The position numbers were made by a program, and so were the translations under genes. The notes beneath the pieces were generated by a model that made no database searches, had not been told where the DNA came from, and saw only the letters and a list, made by a program, of their open reading frames with translations. Shown piece by piece: positions 1 through 10,434 of a DNA stretch of 10,434 nt. Each line of letters opens with the position of its first letter. Position 1 is the stretch's first letter. Location: NCBI GenBank assembly GCA_038858525.1, contig JAWCFL010000039.1:5285-15718 (forward strand), read 5' to 3'. The DNA comes from Candidatus Jordarchaeales archaeon. Lineage in GTDB: Archaea > Asgardarchaeota > Jordiarchaeia > Jordiarchaeales > Freyrarchaeaceae.

Positions 1-293
1 CCGTCACCATCAGTGTCAGCTGAAGCCGGGTTAGTGCCACGCTGGTACTCCTGGATGTTGGTCAGCCCGTCGCCGTCCTTATCCTGCCCAGCATCGTCAC
101 TCAGCGGGTCAAGACCATACTGCACCTCCCAGCCATCAGGCATACCATCACCATCAGTGTCAGAGCTCAGCGGGTTCAAGTTGTGCTGCACCTCCCAGCC
201 GTCAGATAGCCCGTCACCATCAGTGTCACTATTGTATGGGTCTGTTCCTATGCTATTTTCCTGGCTGTTTGTTAGCTGGTCTCCGTCGTAGTC
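1..293 (-). repeat. Coding tandem Asp-rich repeats (D-T-D-G-D-G-L/M-x-D/N...E...G/N-T/L-D/N-P), bacterial TSP3-like Ca-binding type
   Basis: Translation: [98 protein letters not shown]. At the DNA level, tgcacctcccagcc recurs at 121-134 and 187-200 (66-nt period). Confidence 0.9.
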
Positions 294-1979
294 TAGAGTG
301 TAATGCTCCATGTAATTTCCTAGGTAATGCCAAAGATATTCATCCCACATGTTGTTGAATGTGAAAGGCAACGCTGTATAGTATGCCTTGTGGTAATTTT
401 GACTTGTGTCGGGGTGGTATATTGCGATTCCACGTGCGTTTGGATGATCCGCTCCCTTTGCTATCGTTATGACTGCGGATGAAATGCTTGATTTGAGAAA
501 GATCGAAAGGGCTGTAAGTTTTGCGTCGGTGATTTTCTGGCTGAGTTTATCGATAAAGTCGTAGAGGTCCACCAAGAAGAAATCTTGATACGTAAATTTT
601 TCTACTTCGTTTAGTGTTTGCTGTATTGCGGTACGCCATGTGCTTTCAATCGTTTTAATGTCAAGGTACTTCGCCGTCTCGTTAAGTGCAATGTAAACAT
701 CAGAGATCCTTGTTACGTTGATTACCGCAAACGACAATCCCGGCGGATTAAGACTGCTGTAGCTATTAACTATCCACTGCCCCAGTTGAGCTGGCGTAGC
801 ACTCGGATTCGCAACCAAAGTTCCAACAAAAGAGTAATCAGTCTCATTATCAACAAGATATATTACGTCTTCAGAAACAACTGCTACTTCTGTCAAATTT
901 CTTAAGGCGTACAAGTGTTCAACTATTCCAGTTAAGCACGCCTTGTAATGTATGAGGTTTACTCCTCCGGTTTCATTTAACGCCATGCGGATTTCTGAAA
1001 AGTTCAGGTTGTCATTGTTATCTGTTCCGTCCCAACAGACGCCATATATTCCGCTGCCATGGTTCCATAGATTTAGGGCATAGCGTTGCGCAGGGAATTT
1101 AGACTTAACGTAACTTATGAAATCCCTCAGAGTTCTATAATCTCCGGTGTTCCTTTCGGCATTACCGAAATCTGAAAGGCATACGGGCCCCTCTTTACCT
1201 ATGTAGTACACTCTGGTCCCAGTCTGAAGGGTATAGGGATTTGTTCCTCCATCATATGGGTCCAAGAGAACAACGAAGTTCACCGAAGCAGTACTACCAA
1301 CACTCGCTATCTCTGCAATGTCACACATGGAGAAAGGCCCTATACCATCTAACCCTTTAGAATCTTCTGCCACCATGTAAAACATATAGGTCCACTGTGC
1401 GGTAGGCTTCGTAATGCTCTGACTCACAGTCACATTCACAGTTAAATTATAGTACCCCCCACTAGGCCAGTCGGCATGGACTTGTATTGTCCAGTACCCT
1501 GTAGGATCTCCTGGTTCCAATGTATAGAGGAGACCTCTTCGAATATCAGGAGGTCGAATATCAGGAAGTGACAAGGTGTTTCGTACCACGCATTGTCCAT
1601 TAGGCGCAAATAAAGCAATTGAAAGATATTCATCTATAGTTCCCTCTTCTAGGTTACAGTCTAATGCGATGTATATGGTGGAGTTGGGGTTACTCACTGT
1701 AATATTATAAAAGTCATCAGCATCCCAAAACCAATCGATAGAGTTATTGATGTATTTTCCTGGTGTTATTATCATTGCTTGACTTGGTGTGTTTCCTGCA
1801 TCATTGGAACTATTGCCGTCCTTAATTGAAGTATAGGTACCGTCGGTGTTTCCTTCATGTTGAGCGGCAAAGACGAGTAGCGGTGAAGCCGTCTGTTGCG
1901 TGGCGTGTAAGAGTATGCCCGTCATTAAAGCGGCCGTCAAAAGTATAACTAGAACAAAAGATACAGTAGCTTTTTTCAT
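1..1979 (-). CDS. Secreted clostripain-family (peptidase C11, clan CD) cysteine protease with an N-terminal signal peptide/anchor, a PPC-like beta domain and C-terminal Asp-rich Ca-binding repeats. The 3' end lies beyond the left window edge.
   Basis: I translated this by hand: ATG at 1979-1977, then 659 codons with no stop to the window edge. The N-terminus is [24 protein letters not shown] (basic plus hydrophobic). C11 motifs: [47 protein letters not shown] (His codon 1059-1061), [18 protein letters not shown] (Cys codon 936-938), DLYDF and GIAIYHP. A GGTGA SD sits at 1989-1993. Confidence 0.9.
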
Positions 1980-2032
1980 CTTAGTTTATCACCTTCCTCT
2001 TTTTGTTTAAATATCATCTCTTTAGAGAGAAA

Positions 2033-2048
2033 TATATAAAAATTTTCG
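2033..2048 (-). promoter_or_regulatory. BRE + TATA box for the C11 peptidase gene
   Basis: Minus strand reads CGAAAATT TTTATATA, about 55-70 nt upstream of the ATG. This matches the archaeal BRE/TATA consensus. Confidence 0.65.
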
Positions 2049-2390
2049 TTGTAGAAAAGATTATTCTTTCAACAGTTACTACGATGAAAGCAAAAACGGA
2101 ATTTGATCTTAAAATAAGCTGAAGGAAGAATACATAGTGTAGTATGTATATAGTTATTCCAAAAAACTACGTGAGAAGGGGGTCCACGCTAGGTAGGCGT
2201 ATCCTAAAAATATGGGTTGGCTTTCGCGAATAAAAAGGGTTTGCTGAAGAGTTAGTAAGGGGGGGTTCAACGCCACTATGCGGAAGCAAAAAGGAAGTTT
2301 TATGGAAGCAAATATATACTGTGCAAGAAGGAATTCAAAAAAGAGTTCAAAGGAACACTTGTCGGGAAAAATCAAGAAAAACAGCCAGAA

Positions 2391-2408
2391 ACGAAAATAA
2401 TTTATAGA
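2391..2408 (+). promoter_or_regulatory. Candidate BRE + TATA box for hdrB
   Basis: ACGAAAATAA TTTATAGA lies about 105 nt upstream of the hdrB ATG, with a GGAGG SD at 2496-2500. Confidence 0.45.
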
Positions 2409-2510
2409 ATTCGTCTAAACGTAAGAGCGGAGTAAGGTGTTACCTATCGCGATAGTGTCGACGTGACTGCGTGAATTCGGCGCGAGAGCATTTAAGGAGG
2501 GATTTAAAAA

Positions 2511-3401
2511 ATGAAGAAATATGCTTACTTTTTAGGGTGTTTAACCCCAAACAGGTATCCGGGTATTGAGGCGGCGACTATTGATCTTTTGAGGATGTTT
2601 GATGTTGAACTTGATTACATGAAGGGGACGTCTTGTTGCCCTGCTCCGGGGGTCTTTGGTAGCTTCGACCTTGAGACCTGGCTTACGATAGCTGCTAGGA
2701 ACATTACTATAGCTGAGGGTATGGGGAGAGATATTACGCTGACCTGTAATGGGTGCTTTGCCACGTTGCAGGAGGCTGACCATGTTCTAAAGCATAACAG
2801 GGAGCTTGTGAAGAAGATTAATGGTCACCTTTCGAAGATTGGAAGGGAGTATAAGGGGACGAGCAACGTTCTCCACGTGATAGAGATCCTCTACAATGAA
2901 ATTGGCCCTGACAGGATAAGTGACATGGTTGTTCAGCCTCTCGACGGAGTTAAGGTTGCTTGTCACTATGGTTGCCACTTCCTGAAGCCGAGCTCGGTGA
3001 GGCAGAGGGGGAACTCTGAAAACCCAACAATGCTGGAGGAGCTAGTTGAAGCTGTTGGCGCTACTCCCGTGGATTATAAGGACAAGAAGATGTGTTGCGG
3101 TGCGGGTGGCGGTGTGAGGGCTGGGAAGATAGACGTGGCGTTGGAGATGACCCGGAAGAAGCTTGACGCGATGATTGAGGCTGGAGCAGACTGTGTAACT
3201 ACACCATGTGTCTTCTGTCACTTCCAGTTTGATGCGGGACAAACAGAGATAAACAGCAAGCTTGGAGCTGAGAAGTACAAGCTCCCAGTAGTCTTCATAA
3301 CTCAGCTTATAGGACTAGCCCTTGGGCTGTCGCCGAGAAGAATGGGGCTTCACAGGCAAAGAATCCCCGTAAAGCCGCTCCTAGACAAAATATTCCACTA
3401 A
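2511..3401 (+). CDS. hdrB: CoB-CoM heterodisulfide reductase subunit B (HdrB) family, two CCG domains
   Basis: 296 aa. Motifs YAYFLGC..., SCCPAPG, TCNGCF, HYGCHFLKP, MCCGAGGG and PCVFCHFQFD give two complete CCG Cys sets in the HdrB pattern. A GGAGG SD is present. Confidence 0.93.
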   Translation: MKKYAYFLGCLTPNRYPGIEAATIDLLRMFDVELDYMKGTSCCPAPGVFGSFDLETWLTIAARNITIAEGMGRDITLTCNGCFATLQEADHVLKHNRELVKKINGHLSKIGREYKGTSNVLHVIEILYNEIGPDRISDMVVQPLDGVKVACHYGCHFLKPSSVRQRGNSENPTMLEELVEAVGATPVDYKDKKMCCGAGGGVRAGKIDVALEMTRKKLDAMIEAGADCVTTPCVFCHFQFDAGQTEINSKLGAEKYKLPVVFITQLIGLALGLSPRRMGLHRQRIPVKPLLDKIFH

Positions 3402-3456
3402 GCCACTTTAAAGACGGGGAATAAGGAAAAAGGGTGACTCGTTAAATAGTCTTTTC

Positions 3457-4584
3457 CTACTTCCGGCTTTCTATTTTTTTGGCGATGGCGTCTCCAACCT
3501 CGCTGGTTCTGCTTGGCTTAACATTAGCGTATTTTCCCTTGCATAGGTCTGGTGTTCTGACTTTTCCCTCCGCTAGTATTTCGGCTACTCCCTGCTCTAT
3601 TAGTTGCGCCGCTTTACTGCAAGAGCTGTCGCCGTTCCTCTGAGCGAGCCACTCGAGCATCATCTTCGCCGAGAGAATGGAGCCTATGGGGTTCGCCACG
3701 TTTTTGCCCGCTATGTCGGGGGCGGTTCCATGCACCGGCTCAAACATGGCGTGTCTGTCCCCAATGTTCCCGCTGGGAGCCATCCCCATGCCACCTATAA
3801 GCACAGAGGATAAGTCTGAGAGTATGTCGCCGAACATGTTTGTCGTCACTACTACATCATAGTGCTCCGGGGACCTTATCATCCACTGGGTCATAGCGTC
3901 CACGTAGACATAGTCCCGCTCAACGCTCGGGTACTTGGCGGCGACCTCGTCAAAGATCTTCCTGAAGAACCTGCAACCATCAAGCACGTTGCTCTTGTCG
4001 ACGCACGTCACCCTGCGCTTCCCGTCAGCAGGAGCCCCGCTTCTTGAAAGGCACAGCTTGAAAGCGTAGTCTATGATCCTCTCGCAACCCTTCCGAGTTA
4101 GGATCCTAACATCCACGGCCGCATCCTCAACTCCGCCCCTGTCCAGAATGCCTCTTATTGGGGCATAGAGGTCCTCCGTGTTCTCCCGCACCACGACGAA
4201 GTCAACCTTGTCCTTGCCCGGAGCGAGAGGCTCAACACCCTCGTAGAGACGAGCGGGCCTAACGTTGGCGTAAAGGTCCAAGCCGAACCTTAAGTCCAGG
4301 AGTATCCTTATTCCCGCAAGTTGCCCGTCTGGGAGAACCGCTTTAGGCCATCCTACAGCCCCAAAAAGAACGGCGTCAGCCTTCCTGCAAGTATCAAAAG
4401 CGTCGTCAGGCCACTCCTTCCCCGTCTCCAAGTAGTATACTCCTCCACATGGAACCTCTATGTATTCCAGTTCGAAGCCGCCAATGGCGCCAGCAGCGGC
4501 ATCTAAAACCTTAACTGCTTCAGGGACAACCTCCCGCCCAACTCCGTCGCCGGGAAGAACAGCAATTCTATAGCGCCTCAACAT
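3457..4584 (-). CDS. Isocitrate/isopropylmalate/tartrate dehydrogenase family (NAD-type beta-decarboxylating dehydrogenase); substrate not assignable
   Basis: Motifs IAVLPGDGVG, GAVGWP, DLYANVRP, VRENTEDLY, VDKSNV, NMFGDILSD and FEPVHGTAPDIAGKNVANP. The start is placed at ATG 4584 because the GTG at 4590 is part of the GAGGTG SD. Confidence 0.88.
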   Translation of the reverse strand: MLRRYRIAVLPGDGVGREVVPEAVKVLDAAAGAIGGFELEYIEVPCGGVYYLETGKEWPDDAFDTCRKADAVLFGAVGWPKAVLPDGQLAGIRILLDLRFGLDLYANVRPARLYEGVEPLAPGKDKVDFVVVRENTEDLYAPIRGILDRGGVEDAAVDVRILTRKGCERIIDYAFKLCLSRSGAPADGKRRVTCVDKSNVLDGCRFFRKIFDEVAAKYPSVERDYVYVDAMTQWMIRSPEHYDVVVTTNMFGDILSDLSSVLIGGMGMAPSGNIGDRHAMFEPVHGTAPDIAGKNVANPIGSILSAKMMLEWLAQRNGDSSCSKAAQLIEQGVAEILAEGKVRTPDLCKGKYANVKPSRTSEVGDAIAKKIESRK

Positions 4585-4688
4585 TAACACCTCAAGAGAG
4601 TCAAGGAAAAGTGACTTAAAAACAACTTAAATTTACCCATGGAGAAGCTCTAAAAAGGAGTTAAGGCAAAAAAGGAGAATATGAAGGG

Positions 4689-5969
4689 CTAAATAACTTT
4701 GTTAAGAACTTCTAGTAGCTCAACGACTTCGAGCTTGGAGCCGCCGGCTGCGACGGCGTCGCCCAAGTTTCTTATGCAGAATGGGCACGACGTGACTATT
4801 GCCTCGGCGCCCGTAGCCTCCGCCTCTTTCACTCTCTCAAGCGCAGTCCATAGGGCAAACTCGGGGTACTGTGTCTTGACGCCGCCACCAGCACCACAGC
4901 ACCATGAATCCTCCTTTACGCGGTACATTTCAACTAGTTCCACTCCCGGTATCGCCTTGAGGATTTTCCTTGGGAGCTCATACCACTCGTCCTTCTTCTT
5001 CTTGATCTCTCTCTCGTCAACGAACCAGTTCTTGCTCTTAGCTAGTTCCTCGCGCTCAACGTCGAGGGCGATGTGCCTCATGAGGTGGCATGGGTCATGC
5101 CATGTGACCTTCTTCTTGTAGCTTCCCTTAAACTTTAGCTTGCCCTGGTCTATGAGTTCAGCTATGAACTCCAACGTGTGCTTGGGTGTGAAGGGCAACT
5201 TCGAGCCGCTGAACTTGGGATAGTCCACTCTAATCGTCCTGTAGCACCCGGCGCAGCTGAAGAGTAGCGTGTCATAGTCCTTAAAGGCCTTCAGGTTCTC
5301 GTTCATAACTCTCTTAGCTTCCTTGCGCTGACCTGTCCTGAAAAGCGGCGAGCCGCAGCAAACTTCATCCTCGAGTACGGCGAACTCGACTCCAAGCTTG
5401 TTCAGTAGCTCAGCTGTAGCCTTTGCCACTTGCTTCTGCCTGTAGGAGGCGGTGCAACCAACAAAGTACGCGATGTTTGCGTCTTTTTTAGTACTGATCT
5501 TTGCCTCGCTAAGCCACTTTGTCCTGTTCTCGTGCTTCTCCCCGTATGGATTGTTAAGCTCACTTACATACTTGCCTAGAGCAGCAGTCTTAGGTGGAAG
5601 GGGGACTCCGGCTTCGACGCATGCTGCCCTTGCAGCCTCGATCAAGTCAACCGTGGGGAGCTTGTTTTCACATTGCGCCTGGCAGTTGCCGCAAGTGGTG
5701 CATGGGTAAATTAGGTCTCTCACACTCTCGTTCGGCACAAGGTTGCCTTCAAGTATTGATCTTAAAATCCACATTCTGCCGCTGTTGAGATATCCTTCCC
5801 ACAGCCGGTAATAGGTTCCGGAGGGGCACCCTTCAATCATACCCTCGTAGAGCGTACCCTTGTATTCCCCAATGCCTTCCCTGTCTGGTTCACCGGAAAA
5901 TGAGAACATGCAGGCTTTACAGTGAATGCAGCGGAAGAGCTCTTTCTTCATCGCTTGGAGGCTTTCCAT
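4689..5969 (-). CDS. HdrD/GlpC-like (Fe-S)-binding protein: two 4Fe-4S motifs plus two CCG domains
   Basis: 426 aa. CIHCKAC...CP and CTTCGNCQAQC, then GCTASY...CCGSP...CAGC and DPCH...WCCGAGGG...CPFC. Confidence 0.88.
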   Translation of the reverse strand: MESLQAMKKELFRCIHCKACMFSFSGEPDREGIGEYKGTLYEGMIEGCPSGTYYRLWEGYLNSGRMWILRSILEGNLVPNESVRDLIYPCTTCGNCQAQCENKLPTVDLIEAARAACVEAGVPLPPKTAALGKYVSELNNPYGEKHENRTKWLSEAKISTKKDANIAYFVGCTASYRQKQVAKATAELLNKLGVEFAVLEDEVCCGSPLFRTGQRKEAKRVMNENLKAFKDYDTLLFSCAGCYRTIRVDYPKFSGSKLPFTPKHTLEFIAELIDQGKLKFKGSYKKKVTWHDPCHLMRHIALDVEREELAKSKNWFVDEREIKKKKDEWYELPRKILKAIPGVELVEMYRVKEDSWCCGAGGGVKTQYPEFALWTALERVKEAEATGAEAIVTSCPFCIRNLGDAVAAGGSKLEVVELLEVLNKVI

Positions 5970-6005
5970 TTTTTATCATCTCCGTGCTATACTCCTCGAG
6001 TTTAT

Positions 6006-6013
6006 TATTTAAA
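6006..6013 (-). promoter_or_regulatory. Candidate proximal TATA box for the HdrD-like gene
   Basis: Minus strand TTTAAATA preceded by GGCAAAG, about 40 nt upstream of ATG 5969. Confidence 0.45.
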
Positions 6014-6044
6014 CTTTGCCCGCCTAGCAGGAGCCGGGCAGTTT
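6011..6044. other. GC-rich inverted repeat/hairpin in the ppcA to hdrD-like intergenic region
   Basis: TGCCCG (6017-6022) pairs with CGGGCA (6035-6040). The stem extends by AAAC/GTTT across a 2-nt bulge and contains an inner CCT/AGG pairing. Confidence 0.6.
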
Positions 6045-6067
6045 CGACTCTCCATCAAGATGAACTG

Positions 6068-6083
6068 GATATAAATTTTATCG
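6068..6083 (-). promoter_or_regulatory. Candidate distal BRE + TATA box for the HdrD-like gene
   Basis: Minus strand CGATAAAA TTTATATC, about 105 nt upstream of ATG 5969. Confidence 0.4.
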
Positions 6084-6172
6084 TTTAGCTTGGAGGACCC
6101 GTTAGCGGATAAAACGGCGTCCGAGGGAGTTGTGGCCTATTGATTTGCCAAGCGCTTTCCGGAATGAACATG

Positions 6173-7741
6173 TTATCCGAGGCACTTCCTGATCATTGCC
6201 GCTTCTTGGAGGTATCTTCTGGCTTCTTCGGGGTTTTCTTCAATGTACGCTATCAAGAAGTTGTTTATGGTGTTCTCATGCTTTCTATGAAGAAAACTTC
6301 TGGGACCCGTTTTGGCTTCCAAGTGGTTTTGGGCTGCTTCGACGTCCTGCAGTATTTTTGAGAGGGCGAATGAGAGCCTTTCTCTCTCCACTCCAGCCTT
6401 CTTAGCCACTTTCTCGTGTGCTTCCATAAGCATGTTTACATTGTCCCATGAAAGGTAACCTGCAGCTGTTTGGACGTCATGCCTTATTTTGAGGTGATGA
6501 GTGACAGCGGCGTCCCATTCCTCCTCGTTTAGCTCGTTCAGCGCTCTTAGCCCCAGTATTTCGGGGGGTATTCCTAAGGTGTAGAGCGCGGCTGCGAATG
6601 GTATTGCTCGAGGGAGCGTGATGCCGCCCATGCTTCTGCTGTAGCCGAAGAGTCCTATGTGGAGTTTTCTGGATCTTCTTTTTGGAACGTATGCTGCAAC
6701 GCTGTTTATGAGGGGGGCTAGGTTTGCTATTACTTCTTGGTAGCTAGCTTTGAGTTTCTGTGTTGCGCTGAGAAGTACCTGTTCTTCATGTGGCTCTAGG
6801 ATTTCTTGTTCACCGTGAGGTAGAATGGTGTTAAGTATCCTAACGGTTCTTTTCACTTCCTCAATTGGATAGTCGTACTTTAGTGAGGATTGTATGGTTA
6901 CAGTGTAGATCCCCCTGTACTCTTCAAGGAAGTTTTGGAGGTTGCTGGGGGAGAGATGTCCTCTGAAGGGCATTGTTCCGACGCCTATTATCGGGTATAT
7001 AGGGATCCCTGTTTCTTCCTCTATTTTTTTGAGCTTTGAAAGGGCGATCTTTGAAAGAAGGACTGCTGGAACGATGCCGTAGTTGAGGGCTGGGTCGGAC
7101 CTCGCCAGGAACACTCTTAGGTAAGGTGGTTTCACCGTGTCCAAGTATGGTTTCACTATTCTTTCAGCTCCTTTGAGGCTTTCCATGTCCTCTATGAGGG
7201 GGATGACTTCTATGGTGGGCGGTTTGAAGCAGCCAACCCAGTCCTTCACTTTTACGGAGGAGTCGATGTCCAGCTCTTGAACTCCAACAATGGCTTTTTT
7301 GTAGTAGTTGAGTAGCCATACGAGCTCTCTGCTGTTAGTTGTGAAGGGCAAAATGACCTCAAATATTGGCGTGACTTCCCTACCATAGAACTTTGAGGCT
7401 ACGTCGCAGCTTACCGGTATGTTGACGAGGCTCTCAACCATTATTTTTTTCTCTGCCTCCTCAACTTTGGGGTTCGGAAGCCTATATGTTAGGAAGACGT
7501 CTCTCCCGATCACGTTCTCCCTGAAGTACTCCTCGTAACTAAGCAGTAGTTTTCTTACGACGTGTGTGTCAACATCCTTTCCTTCGGCGTCCCACATGAC
7601 CTCGTGGCAGCCGAGCTCGCTGAAGACGAAGAACGCCTCGTAGACTTCGTCGTCTTCCTCAATTACTTCACTCTTACACCATTGGGGGACGCAGGCATTG
7701 TCCGGATGCTGGGTGGACATTGTGCGCGGTATTAATCTCAA
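6173..7741 (-). CDS. ppcA: Archaeal-type phosphoenolpyruvate carboxylase
   Basis: 522 aa with a TTG start and a GGTG SD. The N-terminal IPRTMSTQHPDN signature is present, along with MWDAEGKD, RVFLARSDPALNYG, GVGTMPFRG, TIQSS and LPRAIPFAAALY. Confidence 0.95.
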   Translation of the reverse strand: MRLIPRTMSTQHPDNACVPQWCKSEVIEEDDEVYEAFFVFSELGCHEVMWDAEGKDVDTHVVRKLLLSYEEYFRENVIGRDVFLTYRLPNPKVEEAEKKIMVESLVNIPVSCDVASKFYGREVTPIFEVILPFTTNSRELVWLLNYYKKAIVGVQELDIDSSVKVKDWVGCFKPPTIEVIPLIEDMESLKGAERIVKPYLDTVKPPYLRVFLARSDPALNYGIVPAVLLSKIALSKLKKIEEETGIPIYPIIGVGTMPFRGHLSPSNLQNFLEEYRGIYTVTIQSSLKYDYPIEEVKRTVRILNTILPHGEQEILEPHEEQVLLSATQKLKASYQEVIANLAPLINSVAAYVPKRRSRKLHIGLFGYSRSMGGITLPRAIPFAAALYTLGIPPEILGLRALNELNEEEWDAAVTHHLKIRHDVQTAAGYLSWDNVNMLMEAHEKVAKKAGVERERLSFALSKILQDVEAAQNHLEAKTGPRSFLHRKHENTINNFLIAYIEENPEEARRYLQEAAMIRKCLG

Positions 7742-7897: not shown

Positions 7898-9229
7898 CTA
7901 GTACGTCTCCTGCCTCAAAAACTTGATTGCCTCGTTGAGAGCAACTTGCTCATAGCGTCTCTTTCCGTCTTTGAAGTAGATGGTTACGGTCCCCGTAGAA
8001 GCTTCCTTCTCCCCTACGAACACTATGGCGTTTATCCCCTTTTTCTCGCAGTACTCCAGCTGCTTCTTATAGCTTCTCCTCATCAAGTCTACTTGAACTT
8101 TCAGCCCTTCCCTCCTTAATTCTCTCCCCACGTTATGGGCGTAACTCCAATACTTCTCGTCCATGGATACCACGAAGACTTGGGTGCATGTTTTCCTTTC
8201 CAGGTTGAAGAGGCCAAGCTCAAGGCCGGCGTCTATGATCCTCTCCAGTCCTACGCTCACCCCAGTTGATGGGGTTCTTGGGCCGCCGTACCGCTCGATG
8301 AGGTCGTCGTATCGTCCTCCCCCCGCCAGCGCGCCTATCTTAGGCTCCTCAACGTAAACCTCAAAAATGGGCCCAGTATAGTAATCTAGTCCTCTAACCA
8401 TGCTCAAGTCCAGAGTAAGGTTATTCTTGTGGCTGGATGCATCGATCACTCCCTTAAGGTGGTCCACCGCTGTGCAGACGCTCTCGTTCTCCTTAAACTG
8501 GGCTTCAAGTTCGTTCAGCGTCTCCTCAGGGTTCCCCGAAACATCAACGACACCCATTATTTTTTCAACTTCACTCGACCCTAGGCCTATCCTGGTAAGT
8601 TCAGCCTCAACTCCATCCCGCCCTATTTTCTCGAGTTTATCTATCGCCCTGAAAACTTCCAGCACCTTTCCCTCACCGTACCTTGAGAGGTTGAGCTCTT
8701 CTTCAAAAATTCCTCTCAGAAGACGGCGGTCGTTAAGCCTAACTCTGAACTCGCTGTAGCCAAGAGACTCCATCACGTCGCACACGACGTCGATCACCTC
8801 GGCGTCAGCTTCAGGATAGGGGGAGCCCACGATGTCAGCGTCACACTGCCAGAACTCCCTGTAACGCCCCTTCTGAGGCCTCTCATGCCTCCAGACGCGC
8901 CCAACATGATACCTCTTAAAGGGCAACGTGAGTGCTTGGCCCGCAACGAACCTAGCGAGGGGAACAGTGAGGTCGTATCTCAGAGCAAGCCACTCCCCAC
9001 TCCACGGGTCCTGGAAACGGTAAAGAAGCTTCGACTCGACCTCCTCCCCATACTTACCCTTCAAAGTCTCCCAATACTCGATGACGGGAGTCTCAAAGGG
9101 GTCAAACCCATACCGCTCAAATACACCTTCGATAACTCCTATAATTCTCTTCCTGAGAAGAGTAACTTCTGGAGGAAAATCCCTGAAGCCGCGCGGAACA
9201 CTATACTTAGTCGACGCCGACACCTCCAC
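7898..9229 (-). CDS. hisS: Histidine--tRNA ligase
   Basis: 443 aa. Motifs PRGFRDF, LALRYDLTVPLAR, WRHERPQKGRYREFWQCDAD, VRGLDYYTG, GGGRYD and GLERI, followed by a C-terminal anticodon-binding domain. The start is GTG 9229 or GTG 9223. Confidence 0.96.
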   Translation of the reverse strand: MEVSASTKYSVPRGFRDFPPEVTLLRKRIIGVIEGVFERYGFDPFETPVIEYWETLKGKYGEEVESKLLYRFQDPWSGEWLALRYDLTVPLARFVAGQALTLPFKRYHVGRVWRHERPQKGRYREFWQCDADIVGSPYPEADAEVIDVVCDVMESLGYSEFRVRLNDRRLLRGIFEEELNLSRYGEGKVLEVFRAIDKLEKIGRDGVEAELTRIGLGSSEVEKIMGVVDVSGNPEETLNELEAQFKENESVCTAVDHLKGVIDASSHKNNLTLDLSMVRGLDYYTGPIFEVYVEEPKIGALAGGGRYDDLIERYGGPRTPSTGVSVGLERIIDAGLELGLFNLERKTCTQVFVVSMDEKYWSYAHNVGRELRREGLKVQVDLMRRSYKKQLEYCEKKGINAIVFVGEKEASTGTVTIYFKDGKRRYEQVALNEAIKFLRQETY

Positions 9230-9319
9230 AAGGAAGACGAGACAAAAACTAGATGATAGGAGAGATAAAATTAACGCTCAAAGAGCAAGAAACGAAAAGT
9301 ATGAGGGTGCCGGGCGGGA

Positions 9320-9339
9320 CTCTCGTGGTTGAGCACCAA
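9320..9339 (-). other. tRNA intron 4, T-loop position 59/60 (20 nt)
   Basis: TTGGTGCTCAACCACGAGAG. This is a complete hBHBh': outer helix GCGGG/CCCGC, central helix TTCG/CGAG, bulges AT|T and AG|T, inner helix TGGT/ACCA. Confidence 0.85.
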
Positions 9340-9360
9340 ATCGAACCCGCGACCCCAGGA

Positions 9361-9380
9361 TTGCACGCGCGTGAAGCGCC
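9361..9380 (-). other. tRNA intron 3, predicted position 38/39 (20 nt)
   Basis: GGCGCTTCACGCGCGTGCAA. The inner helix is GCGC/GCGC and both cuts fall in 3-nt bulges (AA|G, AA|T). The central helix is imperfect: GCA(G)C/GTGC. The register is ambiguous over the flanking GCAA repeat. Confidence 0.6.
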
Positions 9381-9381
9381 T

Positions 9382-9400
9382 TGCTGCCCCCAAGCCGGGT
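9382..9400 (-). other. tRNA intron 2, canonical position 37/38 (19 nt)
   Basis: ACCCGGCTTGGGGGCAGCA. The central helix is CTGT/GCAG, with bulges GG|A and CA|A and an inner helix CCC/GGG. Confidence 0.8.
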
Positions 9401-9415
9401 CCACAGTCCTGTGCT

Positions 9416-9431
9416 TACGGGGTTCTAAGCT
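9416..9431 (-). other. tRNA intron 1, position 22/23 (16 nt)
   Basis: AGCTTAGAACCCCGTA. The central helix is TGGG/CCCG with bulges AG|A and TA|A. Of the four registers allowed by the AGC repeat, only 22/23 gives a 4-bp central helix. The inner helix is weak (relaxed BHB). Confidence 0.75.
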
Positions 9432-9481
9432 CTCCCAAGCTGAGCTACCGGCACCTCATCGAGAAATTAGAAGAAAACAAT

Positions 9482-9497
9482 TTTTAAAAGTTTTCTA
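9482..9497 (-). promoter_or_regulatory. BRE + TATA box of tRNA-His
   Basis: Minus strand TAGAAAAC TTTTAAAA. The TATA lies 28-35 nt upstream of G1, consistent with a short 5' leader. Confidence 0.65.
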
Positions 9498-9513
9498 TTT
9501 TTATTTCCACTAC

Positions 9514-9600
9514 TTACCGTTGTCGGATAGTTAACTTTTTATAACTATCCGTTCCACCTCTTTAAGTTCATCGGTGGCTTTCGCCGCCAACGGTAAAGGA
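9514..9600 (-). ncRNA. Predicted TnpB omegaRNA/reRNA scaffold (element right end) overlapping the tnpB 3' end
   Basis: A perfect 10-bp hairpin CGGATAGTTA/TAACTATCCG (9524-9551) spans the stop codon. There is also a GAAA-tetraloop hairpin (9571-9590) and a 9-bp long-range complement TTACCGTTG/CAACGGTAA (9596-9588 with 9522-9514). TnpB guide scaffolds are known to derive from the right end. Confidence 0.6.
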
Positions 9601-10434
9601 CGGCACATTGGGAGCTTCATGGCTATATTCCATGCAGCGACAAGGTGTCTATCTGCCTGGAACCCGCACCGCCTACACTTGAAGACATGCCCATTCGGCT
9701 TATTCAACCCGCCACACATCGGGCACGTCCTAGAGGTGTTCTTAGCGTCAACTATTTCAGGATTAAAGCCATGCTCCATCGACTTATAAGAAATGTAAAG
9801 CTGGATTCTCCTGAATGGCATGCTGTGGAGCCTCCTATTCATCACCCTACCATACCGAATCCTCCCCCTGATATGGGTGAGCTCCTCCATTACAGGCTTA
9901 ACGTTTTCCTCGGCAACTATACGGGTTACAATCTTCGCCGCCCTATGGAGTACGTCGTTTACCCTCCGCCTCTCCCTCCCAGAATACTTCGATAACAGCC
10001 TAGCTCTTGTCTTCCCCGAGGTCTTGCTCTGAATGCTCCTCCTCTTCCTGAAGTACCTGCCTCTAATGTGTTTTGCCTCACTTATATCTATCTTGATGAA
10101 CCTAACCTTACCCGGCTTCACAACAGCCAAATCTACACTACACTCATTAACATCGATGCCTAGTATGCCTTCAGCCTCCCCCTCCTCAACAGTCCTCCTA
10201 AAAGTAACATGAAGATAGTATTCATTATTAAATTTTACAAGCCTTGAGCCTTTAACCTGCCAGTGCATGAACTTCCTTGAATGCTCATGAACCCTGAACG
10301 GAATCGCGATGTGTCCTTTGTGCGTAGCCAGCCTTACGCATCCCCAACTGAACCAGAACAGGTGGGCGTCGTCCAAAAGAATGCTTATCTTTTCAACCCT
10401 TGGAGGACCAATTTCCTTTCTCCTCCTGGAGAGC
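9531..10434 (-). CDS. tnpB: TnpB family RNA-guided endonuclease (IS200/IS605 OrfB); 5' end beyond the right window edge
   Basis: RuvC-I GILGIDVN (Asp 10152-10154), RuvC-II VMEEL (Glu 9885-9887), NTSRTCPMCG...FKCRRCG zinc ribbon and the RuvC-III region ADRHLVAAWNIA. The frame stays open upstream of the track's TTG at 10376 (…LSRRRKEIGPPRVEKISILLDD…). Confidence 0.93.
   Translation of the reverse strand, partial: LSRRRKEIGPPRVEKISILLDDAHLFWFSWGCVRLATHKGHIAIPFRVHEHSRKFMHWQVKGSRLVKFNNEYYLHVTFRRTVEEGEAEGILGIDVNECSVDLAVVKPGKVRFIKIDISEAKHIRGRYFRKRRSIQSKTSGKTRARLLSKYSGRERRRVNDVLHRAAKIVTRIVAEENVKPVMEELTHIRGRIRYGRVMNRRLHSMPFRRIQLYISYKSMEHGFNPEIVDAKNTSRTCPMCGGLNKPNGHVFKCRRCGFQADRHLVAAWNIAMKLPMCRPLPLAAKATDELKEVERIVIKS

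Follow-up and report, generated by a model that had tools for sequence, protein, structure and literature searches.

The window, a stretch of 10,434 nucleotides, carries on its minus strand at 9455-9306 a tRNA-His(GTG) gene of a hot-spring Asgard archaeon (Jordarchaeia), which is split by four small introns. We consider it probable that all four are BHB introns and that two of them, located at 37/38 and 38/39 in the anticodon loop, flank a lone exon base, A38, and are excised in a set order over two rounds. The sequence anatomy of the gene, its conservation, the statistics of its motifs and the splicing enzymes encoded in the genome are described below, and from them we infer cleavage at these sites and in this order.

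The tRNA-His gene and its four introns

A search of the raw window with ARAGORN and Rfam reported no tRNA at 9455-9306. When four pieces of 16, 19, 20 and 20 nt are taken out, a perfect 75-nt cloverleaf is left and ARAGORN calls the spliced sequence tRNA-His(gtg). The acceptor stem is GTGCCGG/CCGGCAC, the D-arm is present, the T-arm is GCGGG/CCCGC, and G-1 is encoded, opposite C73. The anticodon arm consists of CAGGA (9411-9407), of CTGTGG, corresponding to C32-G37 (9406-9401) and including the anticodon GTG (9404-9402), and of the 3′ strand TCCTG (9360-9356); the insert within it is made up of 19 nt (9400-9382), an A (9381) and 20 nt (9380-9361). The spliced tRNA thus has an intact 7-nt anticodon loop, CTGTGGA; this loop, the anticodon arm and A38 recur unchanged in tRNA-His genes without introns from another Asgard family. 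The introns are found at 22/23, 37/38, 38/39 and 59/60, some of which are non-canonical positions (Table 1).

Table 1. Coordinates of the tRNA-His gene, its introns and the flanking features in the window
Feature	Coordinates	Strand	Basis and remarks
TATA-like box TTTTAAAAAT, putative archaeal tRNA promoter	9480..9489	-	Sequence; centred ~30 nt upstream of G-1; promoter role suggested by position only
Exon 1: G-1, acceptor 5′ strand, D-stem 5′ strand, D-loop, to G22	9432..9455	-	Spliced cloverleaf
Intron 1, 16 nt, D-arm, 22/23	9416..9431	-	Relaxed BHB: central TGGG/CCCG 4/4; outer and inner helices weak
Exon 2: A23-G37, anticodon stem 5′ strand CAGGA, C32-G37	9401..9415	-	Spliced cloverleaf
Intron 2, 19 nt, canonical 37/38	9382..9400	-	BHB once intron 3 is gone
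A38, candidate one-nucleotide exon between introns 2 and 3	9381..9381	-	Best A38 position in 6/6 orthologues
Intron 3, 20 nt, 38/39	9361..9380	-	Relaxed motif in unspliced precursor
Exon 4: T39-T59, anticodon stem 3′ strand, variable loop, T-stem 5′ strand, T-loop to T59	9340..9360	-	Spliced cloverleaf
Intron 4, 20 nt, T-loop 59/60	9320..9339	-	Strict hBHBh′: outer 5 (T-stem), central TTCG/CGAG 4/4, inner 4
Exon 5: T60, T-stem 3′ strand, acceptor 3′ strand, discriminator C73	9306..9319	-	CCA not encoded; T-rich trailer next
hisS (histidyl-tRNA synthetase)	7898..9229	-	Pfam; 76 nt downstream of tRNA-His, same strand; context, outside the intron system

The host assembly comprises 2.09 Mb with a GC content of 47% and is 92.7% complete. 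No second copy of tRNA-His was found when the spliced sequence was compared with the genome by BLAST, and a genome-wide spliced-alignment scan with the intron-poor tRNAs of another Asgard genome gave no other match to the tRNA-His reference. The gene in the window is the sole tRNA-His(GTG) found in the assembly.

Orthologues were collected from three genomes of the same genus (g1), one genome of a second genus (g2) and four metagenome contigs, which together gave six distinct sequences, four in genus g1 (the window, G001, G002 and G003) and two in genus g2 (G004 and L101). The layout with two introns in the anticodon loop is kept in all six and thus in two genera of Jordarchaeia. Only 0-6 of the 75 positions of the mature tRNA differ among the six sequences, including a compensatory change of A28:T42 to G:C, and exon 1 is nearly identical throughout, with a single T/C change in the D-loop, while the introns of distinct species are 45-80% identical. 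Intron 1, whose 4/4 central helix is formed by the TGGG of the D-loop with the intron, is present in all four genus-g1 sequences and absent from genus g2; in the window it could also be read in another register, with 9428-9413 excised, which gives an identical product. Intron 4 has a strict hBHBh′ motif in the six sequences (17-24 nt; outer 5, central 4/4, inner 3-7), and its inner helix shows compensatory changes. These patterns bear on the idea that the locus is a decayed tRNA pseudogene, of which the motif-like pairings are mere leftovers. Although such a reading would be in keeping with the failure of standard tRNA finders to call the gene, we regard it as very unlikely, given that no other tRNA-His was found in the assembly, that its exons are strongly constrained while the introns drift and their helices show compensatory changes, and that it has been kept next to hisS in two genera, with a TATA-like box upstream.

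In all relatives of both genera (L002-L005, L101, L104), hisS follows tRNA-His on the same strand after ~76 nt, and the two could possibly be co-transcribed. It is more speculative, but suggested by the 76-nt spacing in every relative, that a slow two-step maturation of tRNA-His could be coupled to a transcript shared with hisS. Directly upstream of tRNA-His there is a TnpB/OrfB_IS605-like ORF with a Cas12f1-like TNB domain (9531-10376, minus strand). A 93-aa ORF on the plus strand (9253-9534) spans the whole tRNA-His gene and is almost certainly spurious. The remainder of the window (3-7741) encodes a clostripain-family peptidase with TSP3 repeats, two CCG-domain (heterodisulfide-reductase-like) proteins, an isocitrate/isopropylmalate dehydrogenase and an archaeal-type PEP carboxylase.

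Motifs of the two anticodon-loop introns

The initial annotation had assigned to intron 2 a central helix CTGT/GCAG whose outer helix could not form until the next 20 nt were removed. The central helix is present on the minus strand as stated, and the number of outward pairs does rise from 0 in the unspliced RNA to 5 after removal of these 20 nt. Once intron 3 is gone, intron 2 of the window has an outer helix of 5 bp (the anticodon stem), the central helix CTGT/GCAG (GCAG at 9387-9384) with 4/4 pairs, an inner helix CCC/GGG and the bulges GG↓A and CA↓A (arrows mark the cuts). The same BHB geometry is found in all six sequences after intron 3 removal, with outer 5, central 4/4 and inner 2-5, and the inner helix covaries between the genera (CCC:GGG versus CTG:CAG). 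In this state, intron 2 is a textbook hBHBh′ intron with a central helix that uses C32-U35, like the canonical archaeal 37/38 BHB intron that Marck and Grosjean reportedly described in 2003. It differs from the latter in the primary transcript, where a second intron lies between its 3′ bulge and the outer helix.

The motif of intron 3 had been predicted to borrow sequence from intron 2, and here too the helices and bulges are exactly as described, with intron-2 strands being used in every orthologue. The 3′ part of intron 2, namely the G-run and GCAGC, supplies the 5′ strands of both the outer and the central helix. In the window precursor, the outer helix is GGG (9390-9388)/CCT (9359-9357), the inner helix is GCGC/GCGC and the bulges are AA↓G and AA↓T, while the central helix has 2/4 pairs in the strict register and reaches 4 bp, as GCA(G)C/GTGC, only if G9384 is bulged. 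Across the orthologues, in which intron 3 measures 13-20 nt, the outer helix has 3-5 bp and is formed by the G-run (g1) or CAGG (g2) with C40, C41, T42 and sometimes G43, its third pair covarying as G:T, G:C or A:T. The central helix joins CAG[T/C] of intron 2 to the 3′ end of intron 3, between bulges of the form AA↓N and NN↓T, and the number of central pairs is 4/4 in G004 and L101, 3/4 in G001 and G003, 2/4 in the window and 1/4 in G002. The motif is therefore canonical in genus g2 (central 4/4, outer 4-5) and relaxed in the species of the window. When the insert was shuffled with the cut sites held fixed, a motif as good as that of intron 3 was obtained in 0.04-0.14% of the window shuffles; over the six orthologues the rate never exceeded 0.66% and was mostly below 0.15%.

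In order to locate A38, every A in the 34-40-nt insert was scored by the motif of the 3′ intron in the unspliced RNA together with that of the 5′ intron after removal of the 3′ intron. The same homologous middle A (9381 in the window) obtained the best combined score in each of the six sequences, and the other candidate positions were rejected on their lower motif scores. This supports the earlier proposal that the mature A38 comes from a one-nucleotide exon at 9381. A single intron of 33-39 nt would have 0-1/4 central pairs. The competing view is that the whole 39 nt are one intron at 37/38 or 38/39, removed in a single reaction, so that A38 would be the A at 9400 or that at 9361, with which the insert begins and ends. 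In all six orthologues the insert does begin with an A, and in the window it ends with one too, which would give the same mature sequence. However, the central helix of such an intron has 0-1/4 pairs at either position in all six sequences, and the insert ends in G in G002 and in C in G003, so that position 38 would be altered there, whereas the intron-less relatives have A38. It would also leave unexplained the internal GCAG, the perfect partner of CTGT. We therefore find a single 39-nt intron improbable, and retain two introns around A38.

For the two-intron reading, the exact junctions in the window are complicated by a GCAA repeat (9384-9381 and 9364-9361), by which five cut registers yield the same product. 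Four of these were rejected, the BHB geometry being found only in the AA↓G/AA↓T register. Due to this repeat, sequencing of junctions or circular introns cannot separate the registers in the species of the window, but it can in species like those of G002 and G003, in which only this register yields A38. Literal nesting, with the first-removed intron wholly inside the other, is not what the sequences present: introns 2 and 3 abut around one exon base, because the motif geometry puts the 5′ cut 3′ of A38. The GCAA repeat was also considered as a target-site duplication, and this was rejected since the repeat is species-specific and follows from both bulges being AA↓N.

As for the origin of this arrangement, that the 20-nt unit was inserted into a pre-tRNA already containing an intron is a guess. 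Among the tRNA-His orthologues of the two genera of family f1, no relative without the 20-nt unit (intron 3) was found. A BLAST search with the precursor found no paralogue of either anticodon-loop intron elsewhere in the genome, and there is thus no sign of a recent intron transposition.

Predicted order of excision and the splicing enzymes

With intron 2 removed first, intron 3 is left with 0-2/4 central pairs in the strict register and has no outer helix in any of the six sequences. Since intron 2 acquires an outer helix of 5 bp and a 4/4 central helix after the loss of intron 3, and no motif is left in the reverse order, excision of intron 3 followed by intron 2 is the only route through recognisable motifs. 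The initial annotation had predicted that intron 3 is excised before intron 2, and the in silico comparison agrees, the outer helix of intron 2 going from 0 to 5 pairs in one order and the intron 3 motif vanishing in the other. The two motifs are also mutually exclusive, because the same CAG triplet takes part in both central helices, its partner being the anticodon-loop CUG in the motif of intron 2 and the 3′ end of intron 3 in the other. Judging from the sequences, the anticodon-loop introns are most likely cut out in a fixed order.

The pathway that we propose, as the most economical one, would start with an alternative fold of the precursor, in which the 3′ end of intron 2, made of an anticodon-stem decoy (the G-run or CAGG) and CAG[T/C], would find its partners in C40-T42/G43 and the 3′ end of intron 3. 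Two 3-nt bulges would then hold the sites A38↓N and N↓T39, at which an (alpha-beta)2 endonuclease would cut, and RtcB would then join A38 to T39. The RNA could subsequently refold such that the real anticodon stem abuts CTGT/GCAG, giving a textbook 37/38 BHB. In the second round, cuts at G37↓A and A↓A38 would release intron 2, and G37 would be joined to A38. Along this route A38 would remain covalently attached throughout and never be free, while simultaneous cutting of both introns would release it as a mononucleotide.

With regard to the enzymes, two EndA paralogues (PF01974) are present in the genome (G000:C3:81835-82089 and C43:5978-6235). One has the Tyr/His/Lys triad, and its best matches are the catalytic (alpha) subunits of Aeropyrum and Pyrobaculum, with which it aligns without gaps through a region that we take to be the crenarchaea-specific loop. 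The other, beta-like paralogue is without the active-site His, which indicates an (alpha-beta)2 enzyme, and the genome thus appears to encode a splicing endonuclease of the crenarchaeal type. The RtcB ligase is encoded by one gene. Enzymes of the (alpha-beta)2 kind cleave relaxed motifs at non-canonical sites (PMC6379350).

The fold proposed for the first round is not the one favoured by nearest-neighbour calculations. MFE folding of the anticodon arm of the six sequences did not recover the motif of intron 3, and the best fold with this motif enforced exceeds the MFE by 3.9-15.9 kcal/mol at 37 °C and by 2.9-11.2 kcal/mol at 70 °C. The real anticodon stem and the helices of intron 2 are usually preserved in the MFE structure, as they are in genus g1. 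A broad-specificity endonuclease might therefore act on the MFE fold, cutting the well-formed 5′ site of intron 2 early or tolerating an enlarged 3′ bulge, in which case the order might be preferred but not strict. In its full form, this objection holds that the same two introns are removed in no obligatory order, the (alpha-beta)2 endonuclease cutting the four anticodon-loop sites as they become exposed. More specifically, intron 2 could go first as a relaxed HBh′ with the hairpin of intron 3 in its 3′ bulge, and intron 3 could follow through an imperfect helix with U33-G36. The retention of the anticodon stem, of CTGT/GCAG and of the inner helix of intron 2 in the MFE or a near-MFE fold speaks for such a scheme, as does the acceptance of relaxed motifs by (alpha-beta)2 enzymes (PMC6379350). 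The last bases of intron 3 in genus g1 (TGCA or CTCA), as read from the sequences, are moreover complementary to U33-G36 at 3-4 of 4 positions, and offer an imperfect alternative route. However, the U33-G36 helix leaves a 3′ bulge of 1 nt, so that the cut geometry is off by one, and it has 2/4 pairs in genus g2, precisely where the motif for removing intron 3 first is canonical. The low pairing left to intron 3 once intron 2 is gone (0-2/4 in the strict register, with no outer helix) also argues against it. We hold splicing with no obligatory order to be unlikely, though it has more in its favour than a single 39-nt intron.

A stronger version of the ordered pathway, on which our own opinion is evenly divided, would make A38 a genuine single-nucleotide exon, possibly the shortest for the archaeal/eukaryal tRNA-splicing endonuclease pathway. 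Intron 2 would then have evolved into a cis-acting decoy of the anticodon stem, with no other task, until it is itself removed, than to present intron 3 to the enzyme, and the strict succession of intron 3 and then intron 2 would be imposed by the toggling CAG helix.

Comparison with other archaeal tRNA introns

The Jordarchaeia are the Asgard group also called Freyarchaeia (PMC11291895). The passages on introns in that paper report them in 92-95% of the tRNA genes of Freyarchaeia and Atabeyarchaeia, often at non-canonical positions and with up to four per gene (Valentin-Alvarado et al. 2024, Nat Commun, PMC11291895). The tRNA-His described here, from the same Asgard order, fits this picture, its four introns, some of them non-canonical, being within the published range. 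Neither splicing order nor abutting introns are mentioned in these intron passages or in Supplementary Data 4 (PMC11291895), and the smallest exons between introns that we computed from that table are of 8-9 nt (Arg-TCT), compared with 1 nt in tRNA-His.

Supplementary Data 4, the table for the complete Freyarchaeia genome, lists no tRNA-His (PMC11291895). In the sister family, pattern and BLAST searches and a look beside hisS likewise did not find tRNA-His in genus g3, which includes this published complete genome (G006, identified by Rfam tRNA matches whose coordinates agree with those of Supplementary Data 4). One weak match was rejected, as it is not a tRNA. An Rfam match in G006 that is absent from Supplementary Data 4 (C1 1729369-1729443; L117 ~160-305) was also set aside, being the 3′ part of an initiator-like tRNA(CAT) with an interrupted 5′ part.

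Within the genome that harbours the window, tRNA introns were surveyed with 36 reference tRNAs, taken from another Asgard genome and placed by a crude spliced alignment. The references are heterologous, the boundaries approximate and the counts rough. About 38 tRNA loci were obtained in this manner, most of them with 2-4 inserts of 10-80 nt. A blind two-step motif test over the ~38 loci returned tRNA-His as the only 3′-abutting pair with a one-base exon (exon gap 1). The same test gave candidate nested inserts at C13:31355 and C5:47257. An Arg(GCG)-like locus (G000 contig C4 near 38338, plus strand) has five gaps, each with a 4/4 central helix, and is a candidate five-intron tRNA.

The closest known parallel is found in the nested multi-intron pre-tRNAs of Crenarchaeota/Thermoproteales, which are spliced sequentially according to the account in PMC3978253 (citing Sugahara et al. 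2007, RNA 13:671; Tocchini-Valentini et al. 2009, PNAS 106:20246). As these pre-tRNAs are presented there, several BHB introns occur in one precursor, the last motif forms only after another intron has been removed, and the heterotetrameric endonuclease accepts BHB and BHB-like motifs, all of which resembles the present case (PMC3978253). In tRNA-His, by contrast with the nested introns as outlined in that account, the intron predicted to be removed first abuts the other instead of lying inside it, with A38 retained between the two, the other intron supplies half of the motif, and the lineage is Asgard and not crenarchaeal. Our literature search for one-nucleotide exons or adjacent introns returned no matches, although Sugahara et al. 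(2007) or Tocchini-Valentini et al. (2009) may show a similar abutting case.

Since ordered splicing of interlocked archaeal tRNA introns and multi-intron tRNAs in this Asgard order have both been published, we claim no new mechanism. What our data add are two introns that abut around a one-base exon, an upstream intron that would supply a decoy of the anticodon stem, and the conservation of this abutting layout over two genera. With six sequences in two genera and motifs that range from canonical to relaxed, the locus is a natural, replicated test case for how RNA refolding may steer a splicing endonuclease, and it would show how small an exon the cut-and-join pathway can carry. The intron layout also explains why tRNA finders can miss tRNA-His in this Asgard group, and it adds to the evidence that the Jordarchaeia rival the Thermoproteales in the fragmentation of their tRNA genes.
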